A stretch of 64,000 nt of DNA from Escherichia coli (GTDB taxonomy: Bacteria > Pseudomonadota > Gammaproteobacteria > Enterobacterales > Enterobacteriaceae). This document shows positions 43,249-49,101 of the stretch, in pieces. Within the stretch, counting starts at the first letter, position 1; every line of letters starts with the position of its first letter. Location of the stretch: NCBI RefSeq assembly GCF_003018115.1, contig NZ_CP027457.1; one strand, written 5' to 3'. Below the pieces are notes generated by a model. It worked only from the letters and a program-made list of their open reading frames with translations. It was not told the DNA's origin and searched no databases. The translations under genes and the position numbers were made by a program.

Positions 43249-45390
43249 TCAAAATTGCCGCATATCCGGCATTCCGGGGGGTAAATCTTTCGGCACAGGC
43301 GCATCCGGTACAGGTTGTGTGGCACCACAGTTCCAGTTAATCACCGGCGCATCACCGTTCACATCCGACTCCCCTTCCAGATGAATGTGCGTACCATTAA
43401 GAAATATGCTTCCGTCCTTCGTCAGCACCAGCCTTGCCTTACCACAGCAGAGTTCAAGATGCTCACCGGCAGAATAAACTGCTGTTTGTCCGGTGTTTTC
43501 CTTCATCGTCTTGCCCACCGAGAAGGTGACGTTATTCCCTACATTGACGCTGTAGCCCATTCCCACCATCAGTGATTTATGCAGCCCTACCTGTGAGGAC
43601 TGCAACAACGCCACCGAGGTATTCATAATGCCGCCTACCGTCGTCTGATACGCCACACCCACCGTCAGCGCACGAATGATCCCCACCTTTTCAACCTGGT
43701 TTGATCCCACTTTGATAATCTGGTTACTGCCCACCGTTTCCACCTGGTTGACACCAACCGTCTGTATCTGATTAACGCCAATGTTCTGGATCTGGTTATT
43801 GGTAACGGTGATCGCCTGGTTGTTACCTATTTTTTCGGCATGGTTGTTTATCACATCAGTGGTGCGGTTATTCAGCACCTCGGTGTTCATGTTCTTCTGC
43901 GCGTGGATGTAGACCTGTTCTTTCCCTGTCGCATCGTCAAACTTCAGTTCATTAAACCCGCTGCCCTTATAGGTTTTCGAACGAATGGTCATCTGCGTCT
44001 TTGTTCCCGGCAGGCTGCCGGGTGTGCGGTTTTCCTGGTGGTAGGTGCGCCCCATAATGATCGGCTGGTCCGGATCGCCGTTGAGGAAGTCCACAATCAC
44101 CTCCTGACCCACACGCGGTATCGCCAGGTTACCAAACCCGGTGCCTGCCCACGCCTGTGCCACACGGATCCAGCATGAACTGTCCTGGTTTGACGGGTTA
44201 TAGCGGTCCCAGTTAAATTTCACCCGCACGCGACCATGTTCGTCGCAGAAGATTTCCTCGCCTGCCGGTCCCGTCACGACGGCGCTCTGCGGGCCATCCA
44301 CCAGCGGTTTCAGCAACGGCTGTGGTCGCCATGTTCTGTCTGCCGGTATTACCGCAAAATGGTTATCCAGCGTGGTGCCTGAACCCCTGCGTCCCGGTAC
44401 CGCCTGCGGCTGTTCGCCGTGAAGATCGCTCGCCACCACCTGCCATTCCCGGTTCAGGTTCGCCTGCGGATGCCCCGTCAGCACAATTCGCCGTCCCGGC
44501 CATATCTCCGGCGAACGGCTTGTTCCGCGCGCCACTTCTGCGTTGTTTCGCCAGCCATCCATCTGCCAGCGGGCAAAGTTCTGCCCGTGGGCACCCTTGA
44601 AACGTCCGGGGTAGTCATACACTTCATACTGTGTGCGCTGGTAATCCTGGTACTGGCCTTCCTGATCAAAACGCCCTGCCCAGCCGGGTCGTTTAAAGGT
44701 GTAGTCTTTGGTCACCACGGAAGAAGGGCGGATTTGTGCGCTGTAGCGAAACTGGCTGATGCAGAGGGTGCTTACCTCGGTACGGGTGTTCGGATTCCAG
44801 GGGATCTCAAAGGACTCCGGCAGATAACGCACGGTATCGCACAGGACCAGGCTCTGGTCGGTACTTTTTTGCGCGTGCTCCTCATAAAAGAAGATGCCTT
44901 CCTCCGCCGCCATCCGGCACAGGAAATCGTAATCAGTCTCACCGTACTGGACACAAAACTCACGGGAAGGATGCGGTTCACTGAACAGCGGACTCCACTC
45001 GGTCACCCCGTTTTCCTGCAATATCGTGCCGAGGATGCTTTTGATGTCCTCGTTCTGGAAGATACGGAAGTTCTGGCGCAGCCCTGTGCGCCACAGCGGC
45101 GGGCATACCTTCATGCTGTACAGCTTCTGGTTTTTGTCGTTCTCCCCCAGTTCAAACCAGGTCACCACACCTTTCACCCGGCGCTGTACGTCATCGCCCT
45201 GCCATATCGTCAGGTAGGCCATTTTGTCGAGGATCTGCTGGAATTCAAGGGAGAGAAACTGCTGGCTGACCAGAGAGAGAGCGAGGGAAAAAAGCGAAGA
45301 GAGTGACTGGTTCAGATGAAAGGAGACCACCGCAAAAGCATCCGGTGGCAGGCCGTCCACTTCCAGCGTGAAACGTAATCCGGTTGACAT
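43249..45390 (-). CDS. vgrG: Type VI secretion spike protein VgrG
   Basis: 713 aa; gp27/gp5-like VgrG; 75 bp upstream of rhs. Confidence 0.9.
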   Translation of the reverse strand: MSTGLRFTLEVDGLPPDAFAVVSFHLNQSLSSLFSLALSLVSQQFLSLEFQQILDKMAYLTIWQGDDVQRRVKGVVTWFELGENDKNQKLYSMKVCPPLWRTGLRQNFRIFQNEDIKSILGTILQENGVTEWSPLFSEPHPSREFCVQYGETDYDFLCRMAAEEGIFFYEEHAQKSTDQSLVLCDTVRYLPESFEIPWNPNTRTEVSTLCISQFRYSAQIRPSSVVTKDYTFKRPGWAGRFDQEGQYQDYQRTQYEVYDYPGRFKGAHGQNFARWQMDGWRNNAEVARGTSRSPEIWPGRRIVLTGHPQANLNREWQVVASDLHGEQPQAVPGRRGSGTTLDNHFAVIPADRTWRPQPLLKPLVDGPQSAVVTGPAGEEIFCDEHGRVRVKFNWDRYNPSNQDSSCWIRVAQAWAGTGFGNLAIPRVGQEVIVDFLNGDPDQPIIMGRTYHQENRTPGSLPGTKTQMTIRSKTYKGSGFNELKFDDATGKEQVYIHAQKNMNTEVLNNRTTDVINNHAEKIGNNQAITVTNNQIQNIGVNQIQTVGVNQVETVGSNQIIKVGSNQVEKVGIIRALTVGVAYQTTVGGIMNTSVALLQSSQVGLHKSLMVGMGYSVNVGNNVTFSVGKTMKENTGQTAVYSAGEHLELCCGKARLVLTKDGSIFLNGTHIHLEGESDVNGDAPVINWNCGATQPVPDAPVPKDLPPGMPDMRQF

Positions 45391-45599: not shown

Positions 45600-46118
45600 T
45601 TATGCTTCCAGCGGTGCGCGCCAGTCGTCGGCACCGGAGGTGCCAGATTTGACGTGTTCCCATTCAATTTTGCGGTAGGCCAGTGAAACTTCGAGCAACT
45701 GGGTGAACTCGCGTTTCGCCGGGTCCTGGCAATGCGGCATATGCAGTTTCATATCGACAATCGTCGAATCAGTCAGGCGGGTAGTGAAATAATGCTCCTG
45801 TTTGCCTTCCACAGAGGTACGCCACCAGTGAAGTTCAGTGGTTGGCAGCATTTCGCCGGAGGCCAGTGCGTTGTACATCAGCGGAACCGCTTTGTTCAGC
45901 GCCACGGTAAAAATGAAAGGCTTGTGAGCACGCTGACCCGCAGGCTGACCGGACTGAGGATCGGTCGGGACAGTAACGTTATGCAGGAATTCCTGCACCA
46001 GCATCTCGTCTTCGTGCCCCTGCACATAGATGTTGCCGACAGAATCAGCGGTAAATGCACCTGCAGTAATATTTCCCTGGGTCTGACCAGTGATGGAGAT
46101 ATAACACGGTGTTGGCAT
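45600..46118 (-). CDS. hcp: Type VI secretion tube protein Hcp (TssD)
   Basis: 172 aa MPTPCYISITGQTQGNITAGAFTADSVGNIYVQGHEDEMLVQ. Confidence 0.9.
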   Translation of the reverse strand: MPTPCYISITGQTQGNITAGAFTADSVGNIYVQGHEDEMLVQEFLHNVTVPTDPQSGQPAGQRAHKPFIFTVALNKAVPLMYNALASGEMLPTTELHWWRTSVEGKQEHYFTTRLTDSTIVDMKLHMPHCQDPAKREFTQLLEVSLAYRKIEWEHVKSGTSGADDWRAPLEA

Positions 46119-46412
46119 TTGTAAACTCCTTGTTAACGTGGTTAATTACTACTTACAATGACCTGCCGTTAATCCCAGACAGGCAGATGCAGCTCACTTC
46201 ACGGAACCGCATCATTTTTCAGTATTTTTTACATACAAACCGAGCTAGAATTTACGGTTGTCGTAAAAACTATTTTTAAAATCATTAAATCTCTTATTCA
46301 GCAATAACTTAATAATATATATCTGGATAACCATACCCAACTGTTCAAAGTCCGTATTGCCTCCATAAAATGGCCAAAGCTGAATCATGAATAAATATTG
46401 TATTTATCCTTT

Positions 46413-46432
46413 CTGAATTATCATTTTGATAA
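46413..46432. promoter_or_regulatory. Fur-box-like AT hexamer repeat in hcp/tssB divergent control region
   Basis: GAATTATCATTTTGATAATT resembles GATAATGATAATCATTATC. Confidence 0.3.
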
Positions 46433-46815
46433 TTTTTGAGATATTCCTTAAAAATACCCACTTAATCAATCACAAAACAAATATATAAACAAGCAATCAT
46501 TAGATTAGCTTATGTTTAATAAAATTATTATACAATTCAATAAGATGAATAAAAAACCCTATATTTAAATTATTGCCATAATACACCTGACGCGAATTAC
46601 ACAGGTTCACACAATCTATTTAACGCTTGCAGAATACCCCTCTTTACGATCGATAAAAAGTCCTTTTCTTATTTATTTTGAAGCGTAAAATGCGGGGTGA
46701 TGAAGGAGTGGTGATTTTATTTTCACCGCCATTAGGGCGGCATTGCCGATATTTTTTTGCGGTACAAATATGCCGTGTTCATGGCCTGTACGAGATAACA
46801 TGACGGATCACTTTT

Positions 46816-47316
46816 ATGAGCAAAAAATTTGAAGGCAGCGTCGCGCCTCGCGAGCGTATTAATATATCGTATGTCCCAAAAACAGATGGCCAGACGGCTG
46901 AAGTGGAACTTCCGCTTAACATGCTCGTTGTCGGCGATACCGGAAATACGCAGGAAACATCCCCACTGGATGAACGTCAGGCAGTTTCCGTTAACAAGCA
47001 CAATTTCGGTGCAGTGATGGCTGAAGCAGCCATTGGCCTCAATTTTACCGTCCCTGCCACACTGAAGGGAAGCACAACGGACGATGAGCTGAATGTGGCG
47101 CTGAATATCAAGTCACTGGATGATTTTTCACCAGATAGCGTGGCCCGGCAGGTTCCGGAAGTGAATAAATTGCTGGAACTGCGTGAAGCACTGACTGCAC
47201 TGAAGGGGCCGATGGGTAACCTTCCGGCATTCCGTACCCAGCTCCAGGCATTGCTGGAAAATGAAGAGTCCCGCGAGCAGTTGCTCAAAGAAATCGGCCA
47301 GGTGAGCAATAAATAA
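46816..47316 (+). CDS. tssB: T6SS sheath small subunit TssB (VipA)
   Basis: 166 aa MSKKFEGSVAPRERINISYVPKTDGQTAEVELPLNMLVVGD. Confidence 0.9.
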   Translation: MSKKFEGSVAPRERINISYVPKTDGQTAEVELPLNMLVVGDTGNTQETSPLDERQAVSVNKHNFGAVMAEAAIGLNFTVPATLKGSTTDDELNVALNIKSLDDFSPDSVARQVPEVNKLLELREALTALKGPMGNLPAFRTQLQALLENEESREQLLKEIGQVSNK

Positions 47317-47350
47317 CCACCACTATTTCATTAAACAGGGTTATCCAGGC

Positions 47351-47575
47351 ATGACGGCACACAAAAATATCTCCGGGACATACCACCTCTCTGTTGCAGA
47401 CATTCTGCAGGTGGTTTACCAGGTATGTTTCAGCCCGTCCGTTGAAATCAACCAGGATGGTGTGGCTGCGCTGATTACAACACTGGATCGCCGTATCAGT
47501 GATCTATTGGATGAGATTATCCATTTTTGTGAGTTTCAGCAGAGCGCGTCGCACTGGCAGCGCGTACTTCACTGA
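47351..47575 (+). other. 74-aa ORF paralogous to the N-terminal region of TssC (fragment or divergent duplicate)
   Basis: ...ALITTLDRRISDLLDEIIHFCEFQQSASHWQRV aligns to TssC ...SMIADIDERISRQMDVIIHAPAFQQVESFWRSL (~40-45% identity over ~60 aa). Confidence 0.45.
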
Positions 47576-47625
47576 CGGCGAAAAGCCGGTTTCAGAAACA
47601 CAGCTAAAACAGAAGGATTTTCAGT

Positions 47626-49101
47626 ATGTCTTTACAGGAAGAGGAACTCGTTTCCAGTCATGCCGGGCAGCCTGAGCAGGCATCGTCGCTGCTTGATCAA
47701 ATCATGGCACAGACCCGTATTCAGCCCGGTTCGGAAGGTTATGACGTTGCCCGCCAGGGTGTGACAGCCTTTATTGCCAGCATCCTGCAATCCACTGCAT
47801 CTGCCGAACCGGTCAATAAACTGGCCGTGGACAGCATGATTGCAGATATTGATGAACGCATCAGCCGCCAGATGGATGTCATCATCCATGCGCCTGCCTT
47901 TCAGCAGGTCGAGTCGTTCTGGCGCTCACTGAAAACCATGGTGGATCGCGTTGATTTCCGTGAAAACATCAAGGTCAACGTGCTTCATGTCACCAAGCAG
48001 GAACTTCTGGAAGACTTTGAGTTTGCGCCAGAAATTATTCAGTCCGGATTTTATAAGCACGTTTATTCGTCCGGTTTCGGACAGTTTGGCGGTGAACCCA
48101 TCGCTGCCGTGCTGGGCGCTTATGAGTTCAAAAATACCGCGCCTGACATGAAACTGCTGCAATACGTCAGTGCCGTGGGCGCAATGGCGCACGCACCGTT
48201 CCTGTCCTCCGTTTCCCCGGAGTTTATGGGGCTGAACTCGTGGACCGAACTGCCTAATATCAAAGATCTTTATGCCATCTTTGAAGGTCCGGCCTACACC
48301 AAATGGCGCGCCCTGCGTGACTCGGAAGATTCGCGCTATTTAGGGCTTACGGCACCCCGCTTCCTGCTTCGCCAGCCCTATTCACCAACAGATAACCCTG
48401 TTAAGAACTTTAACTATTACGAAGATGTCAGCCAGAACCACGAAGATTATCTGTGGGGTAATACGGCCTGGATGCTGGCATGCAATATCGCAGACAGTTT
48501 TGCCAAATACCGCTGGTGTCCAAACATTATCGGTCCGCAAAGCGGCGGCGCAGTGAAAGATCTGCCGGTGCATCTGTTCGAAACGATGGGGCAGATTCAG
48601 GCCAAAATCCCAACCGAGGTGCTGGTCACCGATCGCCGCGAATTTGAACTGGCTGAAGAGGGTTTTATCACCCTTACCATGCGTAAAGACTCTGATAATG
48701 CAGCCTTTTTCTCTGCAAACTCGGTACAAAAACCGAAGCACTTTCCGGGAAAAGATGCAGAAACCAACTATAAGCTGGGTACGCAGCTTCCTTATCTCTT
48801 CATCATCAATCGGTTAGCGCACTACATCAAGGTGTTGCAGCGTGAACAACTGGGGTCATGGAAAGAAAGGAGCGACTTAGAAAGAGAGCTTAATACCTGG
48901 ATCCGTCAGTATGTTGCCGACCAGGAAAACCCGCCTGCAGACGTGCGCAGCCGCAAACCTCTGCGCGCTGCCAAAGTTGAGGTTATGGATGTAGAAGGCG
49001 AACCCGGCTGGTACCAGGTTGCGCTAAGCGTGAGACCTCATTTTAAATTTATGGGGGCAAATTTTGAGCTTTCCCTGGTTGGCCGGTTAGACAGGGAGTA
49101 A
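47626..49101 (+). CDS. tssC: T6SS sheath large subunit TssC (VipB)
   Basis: 491 aa; HAPAFQQVESFWRSL conserved TssC motif. Confidence 0.9.
   Translation: MSLQEEELVSSHAGQPEQASSLLDQIMAQTRIQPGSEGYDVARQGVTAFIASILQSTASAEPVNKLAVDSMIADIDERISRQMDVIIHAPAFQQVESFWRSLKTMVDRVDFRENIKVNVLHVTKQELLEDFEFAPEIIQSGFYKHVYSSGFGQFGGEPIAAVLGAYEFKNTAPDMKLLQYVSAVGAMAHAPFLSSVSPEFMGLNSWTELPNIKDLYAIFEGPAYTKWRALRDSEDSRYLGLTAPRFLLRQPYSPTDNPVKNFNYYEDVSQNHEDYLWGNTAWMLACNIADSFAKYRWCPNIIGPQSGGAVKDLPVHLFETMGQIQAKIPTEVLVTDRREFELAEEGFITLTMRKDSDNAAFFSANSVQKPKHFPGKDAETNYKLGTQLPYLFIINRLAHYIKVLQREQLGSWKERSDLERELNTWIRQYVADQENPPADVRSRKPLRAAKVEVMDVEGEPGWYQVALSVRPHFKFMGANFELSLVGRLDRE

Follow-up and report, generated by a model that had tools for sequence, protein, structure and literature searches.

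A 74-codon reading frame lies between tssB and tssC

The window analysed here is a 64,000-nucleotide (nt) stretch of the Escherichia coli contig NZ_CP027457.1 (RefSeq assembly GCF_003018115.1). It contains a type VI secretion system (T6SS) locus, the plus strand of which carries, in this order, tssB, an open reading frame (ORF) of 74 codons, tssC, tssE, tssF and further genes. The subject of this work is the 74-codon ORF (47351..47575), listed in RefSeq as the hypothetical protein WP_000123970.1 of 74 amino acids (aa), which runs from ATG to TGA, starts 34 nt past the tssB stop codon and ends 50 nt ahead of the tssC start codon. A sequence-only reading of the stretch had reported an extra 225-bp ORF between the two genes, and the frame is indeed there and intact.

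Both neighbours are sheath genes on the same strand. tssB (46816..47316), identified from the ORF list and from RefSeq tssB in homologous genomes, encodes the small sheath subunit of 166 aa. tssC (47626..49101), full-length in the ORF list and in RefSeq, encodes the large sheath subunit of 491 aa and is the putative parent of the fragment. Sequence comparison places a motif resembling a Shine-Dalgarno (SD) sequence, CAGGG, in spacer 1 (47317..47350), 10-14 nt before the ORF start, and the SD sequence GAAGGA in spacer 2 (47576..47625), the native leader of tssC, both on the plus strand.

The reading frame resembles the N-terminal region of TssC

In BLASTP, the ORF product aligned to the downstream TssC with 20/58 identities (34%; ORF residues 15-72 versus TssC residues 50-102; pairwise E=2e-8), and a direct count over ORF residues 32-72 versus TssC residues 62-102 gave 17/41 identities (41%). 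Both proteins contain the motif IIH..FQQ..S.W, which reads IIHFCEFQQSASHW in the ORF and IIHAPAFQQVESFW in TssC. At the profile level, hhalign matched the ORF family to TssC N termini with a probability of 97% (E=1.2e-10), pairing ORF residues 27-72 with TssC residues 57-102, and the ORF-family profile also matched the VipB/TssC chains 5MXN, 5OJQ, 3J9G and 5URW with E values of ~1e-5 to 1e-4. Moreover, the local alignment of the core DNA had a z-score of 8.7 relative to shuffles. Based on hhalign, the matches to Protein Data Bank (PDB) chains and the DNA alignment, the TssC-homologous core of the ORF (residues 27-72) lies at 47429..47566 and corresponds to the long helix of domain 3 together with the shared motif; its paralogous counterpart in tssC (residues 57-102), placed by BLASTP, DNA alignment and hhalign, lies at 47794..47931, likewise on the plus strand.

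Library models matched the ORF at fragment level. The Pfam VipB match was weak (E=0.003) and covered only model positions 2-33 of 301; the NCBIfam model TIGR03355 matched with E=5e-4, scoring 19.1 bits on the ORF and 22.5 bits on the related protein P0045 against a cut-off of 271.5, so that neither scores as a full-length TssC. BLASTP and NCBIfam carry the match back to ORF residue 14-15, corresponding to about TssC residue 50 in the preceding helix of domain 3. Compared with TssC residues 1-58, the N-terminal 24-28 residues of the ORF had no significant protein similarity (shuffle p=0.05-0.75). A vestigial ClpV-binding motif at ORF residues 13-24 was considered and rejected, because the similarity was not significant and BLASTP and NCBIfam align this stretch to TssC residues ~48-56.

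In total, these comparisons identify the ORF as a truncated paralogue of the N-terminal region of TssC, in agreement with the sequence-only reading. The identity of 40-45% over about 60 residues given there is reached in the 41-residue core but drops to 34% over 58-60 residues, and the motif quoted there, IIH..EFQQ..S.W, is present in both proteins. Like TssC/VipB (N terminus of PF05943; TIGR03355; PDB 3J9G, 5MXN, 5URW and 5N8N), the ORF has the N-terminal helices of sheath domain 3, including the motif IIHxxxFQxxExxW. Unlike TssC, it spans 74 aa instead of ~491 and is without domains 1 and 2 and without the VipB_2 domain (PF18945). The ORF product cannot polymerise as a sheath subunit and, judged by its scores and domain content, is not a TssC.

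Relatives of the ORF occupy the same site in one T6SS sub-lineage

Protein searches recovered as relatives of the ORF only ORFs of 70-74 aa and no other kin. In a protein alignment, they form two clades that are 31-43% identical to each other, i.e. a 74-aa clade from Escherichia (E. coli with two alleles, E. albertii and E. marmotae) and a 70-aa clade, hereafter clade C, from Salmonella enterica, Citrobacter portucalensis, Atlantibacter and other enterobacterial contigs, to which P0045 belongs. In every retrieved locus, the ORF is flanked by tssB and tssC, with the layout hcp / tssB-ORF-tssC-tssE-tssF. One database source labels a member of the family 'predicted component of type VI protein secretion system'.

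Six outgroup loci that share this layout (Rahnella, Proteus, a Vibrio parahaemolyticus plasmid, Superficieibacter, Citrobacter farmeri and Enterobacter bugandensis) have no such ORF, and their tssB and tssC are separated by 0-27 nt, with ~22 nt in Superficieibacter, as expected from the earlier statement that the two genes are normally adjacent. Thus, the insert of ~290-310 nt is derived in one sub-lineage, which comprises the E. coli 'T6SS-2' and its relatives in Citrobacter, Salmonella, Yokenella and Atlantibacter. That the duplication is not recent, as had also been proposed, is borne out by the Citrobacter/Salmonella/Atlantibacter clade, in which the ORF occupies the same site with a protein identity of 36-40%.

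The DNA of the window is 99-100% identical to E. coli chromosomes, and the tssB-ORF-tssC stretch is present in 2276/5426 complete E. coli genomes, including those of O157:H7, O104:H4, O111, O121 and strain HS. The full spacer is carried by 2240 complete genomes in two alleles, with 1967 at 99% or more identity and 284 in the 90-95% band, mostly at ~93.5%.

Three variants of the locus or of the ORF were also observed. The 100-aa protein P0033, found on 7 contigs, fuses the first 26 ORF residues to the last ~74 residues of TssC (…QVVYQVC/LERELNTWIRQ…, with the slash at the junction) and implies an allele from which the greater part of the ORF and almost the whole of tssC have been deleted. P0020 from E. 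marmotae (58 aa) is an ORF variant with an apparent in-frame loss of 16 residues at the protein level (residues 21-36), which takes away the end of the first helix and the loop. Finally, in a clade C locus from a Logan contig (L008), the 70-aa ORF is intact, tssC is called at 234 aa and a YafT-family gene follows; this locus appears to be truncated downstream.

Origin of the insert

When 1.84 billion representative proteins were scanned with the ORF in HMMER, no TssC was found at E<1e-3, and the matches consisted of the ORF's own family and spurious repetitive proteins; no TssC in this library is closer to the ORF than the resident TssC. The hidden Markov model (HMM) of the ORF family scored highest, with 41 bits, on the TssC of Superficieibacter, which is the nearest TssC from a locus that has no insert; the scores were 33-35 bits for the cognate TssCs and 20-26 bits for i1-type TssCs that are more distant. 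The ORFs and the Superficieibacter TssC have states in common, such as DEIIH and EFQQ.

The start regions were compared at the DNA level. Clade C ORFs begin with CAGGGAGATTATCCTGGT ATG AGC TTG CGG and tssC, as well as its outgroup counterpart, with CAGGAAGGTTTTAGT ATG TCA CTA CAG; the first codons thus read ATG-Ser-Leu-Gln/Arg in clade C ORFs versus ATG-Ser-Leu-Gln in tssC. In a start-anchored test of the ORF against the tssC start region, p was 0.001-0.007 for clade C and 0.03-0.06 for Escherichia. Spacer 2 is conserved between the clades, and the short spacer that separates tssB from tssC in the outgroups is homologous to its final ~20 nt. Spacer 1 is probably a duplicated copy of the ribosome-binding region of tssC. 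The support that this 5' boundary, made up of ribosome-binding site and start codon, lends to a tandem duplication is modest.

The best HMM scores on TssC of the ORF's own sub-lineage, the likeness of the SD and start regions, and the lack of any closer TssC point to a tandem partial duplication in situ. The copy is adjacent to tssC, co-oriented with it and closest to the resident lineage, its 5' boundary resembles that of tssC, and the outgroups are without the insert. Such a duplication would have taken place in an ancestor of this enterobacterial T6SS sub-lineage and would have copied the ribosome-binding site together with roughly 105 codons from the start of tssC; internal deletions would then have shortened the copy. 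The alternative in the sequence-only reading that the ORF is a remnant of a different T6SS sheath gene is disfavoured by the HMM scores and by the lack of a closer TssC.

Compared with the loci L002, L009-L016 and L109, the sheath operon (46816-49101) is a recombination mosaic. Between the window and the allele of sequence type ST2747, the synonymous divergence (dS) is 0.205 in tssB and only 0.012 in tssC. Similarly, the tssC of Salmonella is far more diverged from the other clade C loci than is its tssB, and Superficieibacter is grouped with the outgroups in the TssB tree and is sister of Escherichia in the TssC tree. The recombination breakpoints seem to fall near the tssB-tssC junction.

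Deep constraint and recent near-neutrality of the reading frame

To analyse selection, tssB, the ORF and tssC from nine loci were compared codon by codon using the pairwise method of Nei and Gojobori (NG86) and a branch codon model in our own maximum-likelihood implementation (Goldman-Yang type, F3x4). In the pairwise comparisons, the ratio of non-synonymous to synonymous rates (omega) of the ORF was 0.9-1.5 within Escherichia and 0.4-0.7 within clade C, and that of tssB and tssC in the same within-clade pairs was 0.01-0.18. The ORFs of the window and ST2747 differ by 3 synonymous and 15 non-synonymous changes, and tssB and tssC have an omega of 0.03-0.14 in this comparison. Between the clades, the proportion of synonymous differences in the ORF (pS ~0.67) exceeded that of non-synonymous differences (pN ~0.39).

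Under a one-ratio model, the omega of the ORF was 0.65 and not different from 1 (p=0.06). A three-ratio model was far better (p=8e-6), with an omega of 1.8 in Escherichia, 0.77 in clade C and 0.03, an unreliable point estimate, on the branch joining the two clades. An omega of 1 was rejected on the joining branch (p=7.6e-7) and was not rejected within the clades (p=0.18 and 0.11). When a single omega was shared by both clades, it was 1.04, and values of 0.6 or less were excluded by profile likelihood (p<0.03). As controls, reading the DNA in the +1 and +2 frames gave inter-clade omegas of 1.5 and 2.5, and the omega of tssB was 0.10 in each of the three branch classes. In a partitioned analysis, the omega pattern of the N-terminal half matched that of the TssC-like core.

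The integrity of the frame was examined in the same framework. In neutral, substitution-only simulations at 44.6% divergence, the open frame and its ATG were kept in 1.4% of the runs, and the sole indel between the clades, of 12 nt, is in frame. Synonymous sites in the flanking genes are saturated between the clades (dS above 1.5) and the spacer is still alignable; we did not retain the flanking dS as a neutral yardstick, as it is confounded by recombination mosaicism and by the bias of NG86 at a transition/transversion ratio (kappa) of ~4. Among metagenome contigs, polymorphisms in the ORF were 1 synonymous to 8 non-synonymous, and those in tssC 29 to 18.

We conclude that the frame was under selection at the protein level for much of its history and is now near neutral in both crown groups. 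The lack of purifying selection that marks a pseudogene is thus seen within the clades (omega of 1.04) but not on the branch between them.

The frame is broken in several lineages and intact in most copies

Three breaks of the ORF in related lineages are independent. In E. albertii NBRC 107761, the ORF has lost its start codon and carries indels of -1, +4 and -18 nt; the adjacent tssB is intact, and tssC runs off the end of the contig. In Yokenella regensburgei, a 1-nt insertion causes a frameshift, and in Citrobacter youngae a stop codon follows after about 20 codons; in both cases, tssB and tssC are intact. Decay of the frame, as in a pseudogene fragment, has thus occurred in related lineages, and most copies are still intact. 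Several frameshifted database variants were not counted as losses because they come from error-ridden assemblies, e.g. L003, in which every gene is fragmented.

In E. coli, the ORF is annotated and intact in 59/59 full-length rows of an evenly spread sample of the 2240 complete genomes with the full spacer, a count that, given how little these genomes vary here, carries little information on constraint. The sequence-only reading had named absence or a frameshift in close relatives with identical flanks, together with a lack of expression, as evidence against the ORF. In part, this is what is seen: the ORF is disrupted in some relatives and absent in the nearest outgroups, but it is intact throughout this E. 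coli sample.

A scan of metagenomes with a conserved 30-mer gave 89 stretches, 78 of which have the intact 74-codon frame. Null alleles of the E. coli type include Y11*, ATG>ACG and W69*, and the ORF in locus L021 is also disrupted. W69* (TGG>TGA; 68-aa product) is found in L079, L082 and L083 on two ORF allele backgrounds, which suggests that this truncating variant spread by recombination. tssC itself has a premature stop codon or an altered length in 20/67 of the E. coli-type metagenome contigs that cover it (L020-L108), and these interruptions may be assembly errors or reflect decaying T6SS-2 loci. For this reason, the frequency of null alleles in the metagenomes was dropped as evidence for dispensability.

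Predicted product and expression

An AlphaFold2 (AF2) model based on the family alignment has a mean predicted local distance difference test (pLDDT) score of 82 and helices at residues 15-26 and 35-73; a Foldseek search of the PDB with this model, which is too small and purely helical, returned nothing usable. In solved sheaths, domain 3 is a surface bundle to which TssC contributes N-terminal helices and TssB one or more C-terminal helices (PMC5807055, PMC4632598), and in P. aeruginosa it is made up of TssC1 E39-E54 and S66-M86 together with TssB1 D117-L133 (PMC5807055). ORF residues ~15-72 align to the two TssC helices of this bundle. The product would therefore be a small two-helix protein equivalent to TssC's share of sheath domain 3.

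ClpV recognises VipB residues 15-28, which are N-terminal to the domain-3 helices (PMC4632598). No recognisable ClpV-binding helix of this kind (LLDEIMAQT-type) was detected in the ORF; in its N-terminal 24-28 residues, the resemblance to tssC is confined to the start region and to the DNA level. The alignment to the two bundle helices together with the lack of a ClpV handle suggests that pairing with the TssB C-terminal helix is the most plausible way in which the ORF product would act or would have acted.

In the tssB-tssC spacer, prediction found no promoter- or terminator-like site, and there was neither an Rfam match nor unusual RNA stability (folding energy z-score of -1.66; 6/100 shuffles fold as well). 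From this, we infer that the ORF would be co-transcribed with tssB and tssC as part of their operon and would be translated from the duplicated SD/ATG.

Genomic context of the sheath operon

Upstream of the sheath operon, hcp (45600-46118) is its neighbour on the minus strand, and vgrG (43249-45390) and an Rhs gene are also on the minus strand. hcp and tssB diverge from an intergenic region of ~700 bp (46119-46815), in which four weak sigma-70-like sites were detected on the plus strand, a count no higher than expected from shuffles. Presumably, this is the region through which H-NS represses the sheath operon (PMC5363993).

In the literature, the island is the T6SS-2 of enterohaemorrhagic E. 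coli (EHEC) EDL933, z0243-z0267 (PMC5363993, PMC7216683), which is repressed by H-NS and induced in macrophages (PMC5363993). The EDL933 gene z0264 ('hcp-2') has been re-assigned as tssB (PMC7216683) and corresponds to the tssB described here. In the near-identical genome of E. coli strain 165 (L001; NZ_CP020509.1), the annotation gives the neighbouring vgrG and hcp, a DUF6531 gene and vasI as partial pseudogenes and has a shortened TssF; tssB, tssC and the small ORF between them are intact. With L001 as an example, the T6SS-2 island is decaying in some strains.

Discussion

We consider it probable that the ORF is an old partial tandem duplicate of the 5' end of tssC, which once functioned on the sheath and is now dispensable and drifting toward a pseudogene in most lineages, E. 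coli included. Its protein would once have acted on the sheath, most plausibly via the C-terminal helix of TssB. The suggestion in the sequence-only reading that the ORF encodes a small sheath-interacting accessory protein is thus supported for the past, by the purifying selection on the deep branch, but not for the present, in which the frame is near neutral and has been lost several times beside intact sheath genes.

Several observations weigh against this interpretation. Synonymous sites are saturated on the deep branch, which is why its omega is unreliable as a point estimate, and NG86 puts the inter-clade omega at about 0.2-0.3 and not at 0.03. The excess of changes at third positions is modest, with differences of 0.39, 0.34 and 0.54 at positions 1, 2 and 3. 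Constraint would have had to be relaxed in both crown clades, which is somewhat unparsimonious, and the intact ORF in all 59 E. coli genomes is equally compatible with ongoing weak function or with low diversity. The N-terminal 14-26 residues of the ORF are without significant protein-level homology to TssC. Finally, the TssB and TssC trees conflict on the position of Superficieibacter, which keeps a replacement-type recombination that left a stump among the possible origins.

A currently functional accessory protein is an explanation that we regard as unlikely. On its own, the hairpin of domain 3 would either bind to the C-terminal TssB helix or take the place of the N terminus of TssC, and would then serve as a chaperone for, or a brake on, the assembly of TssB with TssC or would modulate recycling by ClpV. 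This is in line with the deep-branch purifying selection, with the conservation across the ORF clades of residues that are also conserved in TssC (N34, I42, D46, R48, I49, DEIIH, QQ and W69), with the conserved SD-like motif and start codon, with the confident helical AF2 model, with the intact frame in the sampled complete E. coli genomes and with a site between tssB and tssC that would give co-expression. Yet omega is ~1 within the clades in the N-terminal half and core alike, some members of clade C carry the helix-breaking substitutions L45P and H58P, and broken copies of the ORF accompany intact tssB and tssC genes in Yokenella and C. youngae and an intact tssB in the E. albertii strain. 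Null alleles occur in E. coli metagenome contigs, and all outgroup T6SS of the same type work without the ORF. In its most specific form, also doubtful in our view, the protein is still made and is a free-standing mimic of the TssC half of domain 3 that pairs with the TssB C-terminal helix and has no ClpV handle; if so, it would tune the amount of TssB available for polymerisation or the ease with which contracted sheaths are recycled, and would be a regulator of sheath dynamics that arose by duplication and is confined to the E. coli T6SS-2/Citrobacter/Salmonella lineage. At the other extreme, the within-clade omega of ~1, the repeated disruptions, the lack of a Pfam or NCBIfam family of its own and the similar overall divergence of spacers with an intact or a broken ORF would fit a relic that never worked and in which the frame is open by chance and recency. 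This is improbable: the inter-clade omega is far below 1 in the annotated frame only, and the start, the stop position and the frame were kept over 45% nucleotide divergence with one in-frame indel, an outcome rare in the simulations. Moreover, the spacer can still be aligned between clades in which the flanking synonymous sites are saturated.

The intact frame, the omega of ~1 and the conserved SD/ATG within the clades are predicted exactly if translation matters and not its product, i.e. if ribosomes cover the ~300-nt gap made by the duplication and would thereby maintain tssB-tssC coupling or protect against Rho polarity where a 1:1 ratio is needed. The tight tssB-tssC spacing in the outgroups and the lack of a terminator or an internal promoter in the spacer agree with this proposal; however, it leaves the amino-acid constraint on the deep branch and the kept TssC-like residues unexplained, and lineages with an early stop codon or a lost start codon still have an intact tssC, so that we give it a low probability. 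We consider it very improbable that conservation concerns a leader or a small RNA and that the ORF is incidental. The spacer evolves more slowly than the flanking synonymous sites (divergence relative to dS of ~0.2-0.6), but NG86 overstates the neutral rate at the kappa found here, the deep-branch constraint shows codon periodicity in a single frame, and the spacer neither matches Rfam nor folds unusually well. With regard to origin, the ORF could instead be what remains of the 5' end of an older tssC, either resident or foreign, that was displaced when a new tssC and the genes downstream recombined in. The mosaic structure of the loci, in which tssB and tssC differ in dS in the same pairs, and the conflicting positions of Superficieibacter would be accounted for in this way. 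We nevertheless deem such a displacement improbable, as the ORF family is closest to TssC of the same sub-lineage and to no other type, the DEIIH and EFQQ states are common to the ORFs and the closest TssC, and the SD/start regions of the ORF and tssC look like mutual copies. Under either origin, the HMM scores identify a TssC of the same sub-lineage, and not of another T6SS subtype, as the donor.

For a duplicate of tssC that once acted on the sheath, TagJ/HsiE1 is a conceptual analogue, i.e. a small, dispensable protein of T6SS clusters that binds a terminal helix of TssB/VipA (PMC4632598), and the ORF product could work analogously. Unlike what is proposed for the ORF, TagJ binds the N terminus of TssB as well as ClpV and occurs in H1-type (i3) systems; no sequence relationship between the two was found, and the ORF derives from TssC. 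A second parallel is z0249 of EHEC EDL933 in the same T6SS-2 island, a partial copy resembling the C terminus of TssA (PMC7216683), from which the ORF differs in parent gene and position. With z0249 in the same island, partial duplicates recur at the T6SS-2 locus. Searches by accession, for a small ORF with tssB/tssC and for a partial duplication found no paper describing the ORF; Z0263, listed among virulence-factor genes (PMC10657854), could not be confirmed as this ORF.

EHEC O157:H7 and about 41% of complete E. coli genomes carry this T6SS locus, and the published maps of the island that we consulted leave the ORF undiscussed. Its identity as a truncated tssC paralogue accounts for the unusually long tssB-tssC spacing and guards against misreading it as an effector, an immunity gene or an unknown core gene. 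If the product were active, which is the minority view on the selection data, the locus would offer a rare example of a structural subunit that gave rise to its own small regulator. In total, the feature is real and has an ordinary origin in a partial tandem duplication, followed by long constraint and then drift; it is not a new core component. The insert is a clean synapomorphy of one enterobacterial T6SS sub-lineage, and the ORF is a worked example of a micro-ORF in which the deep and the recent selective regimes differ.

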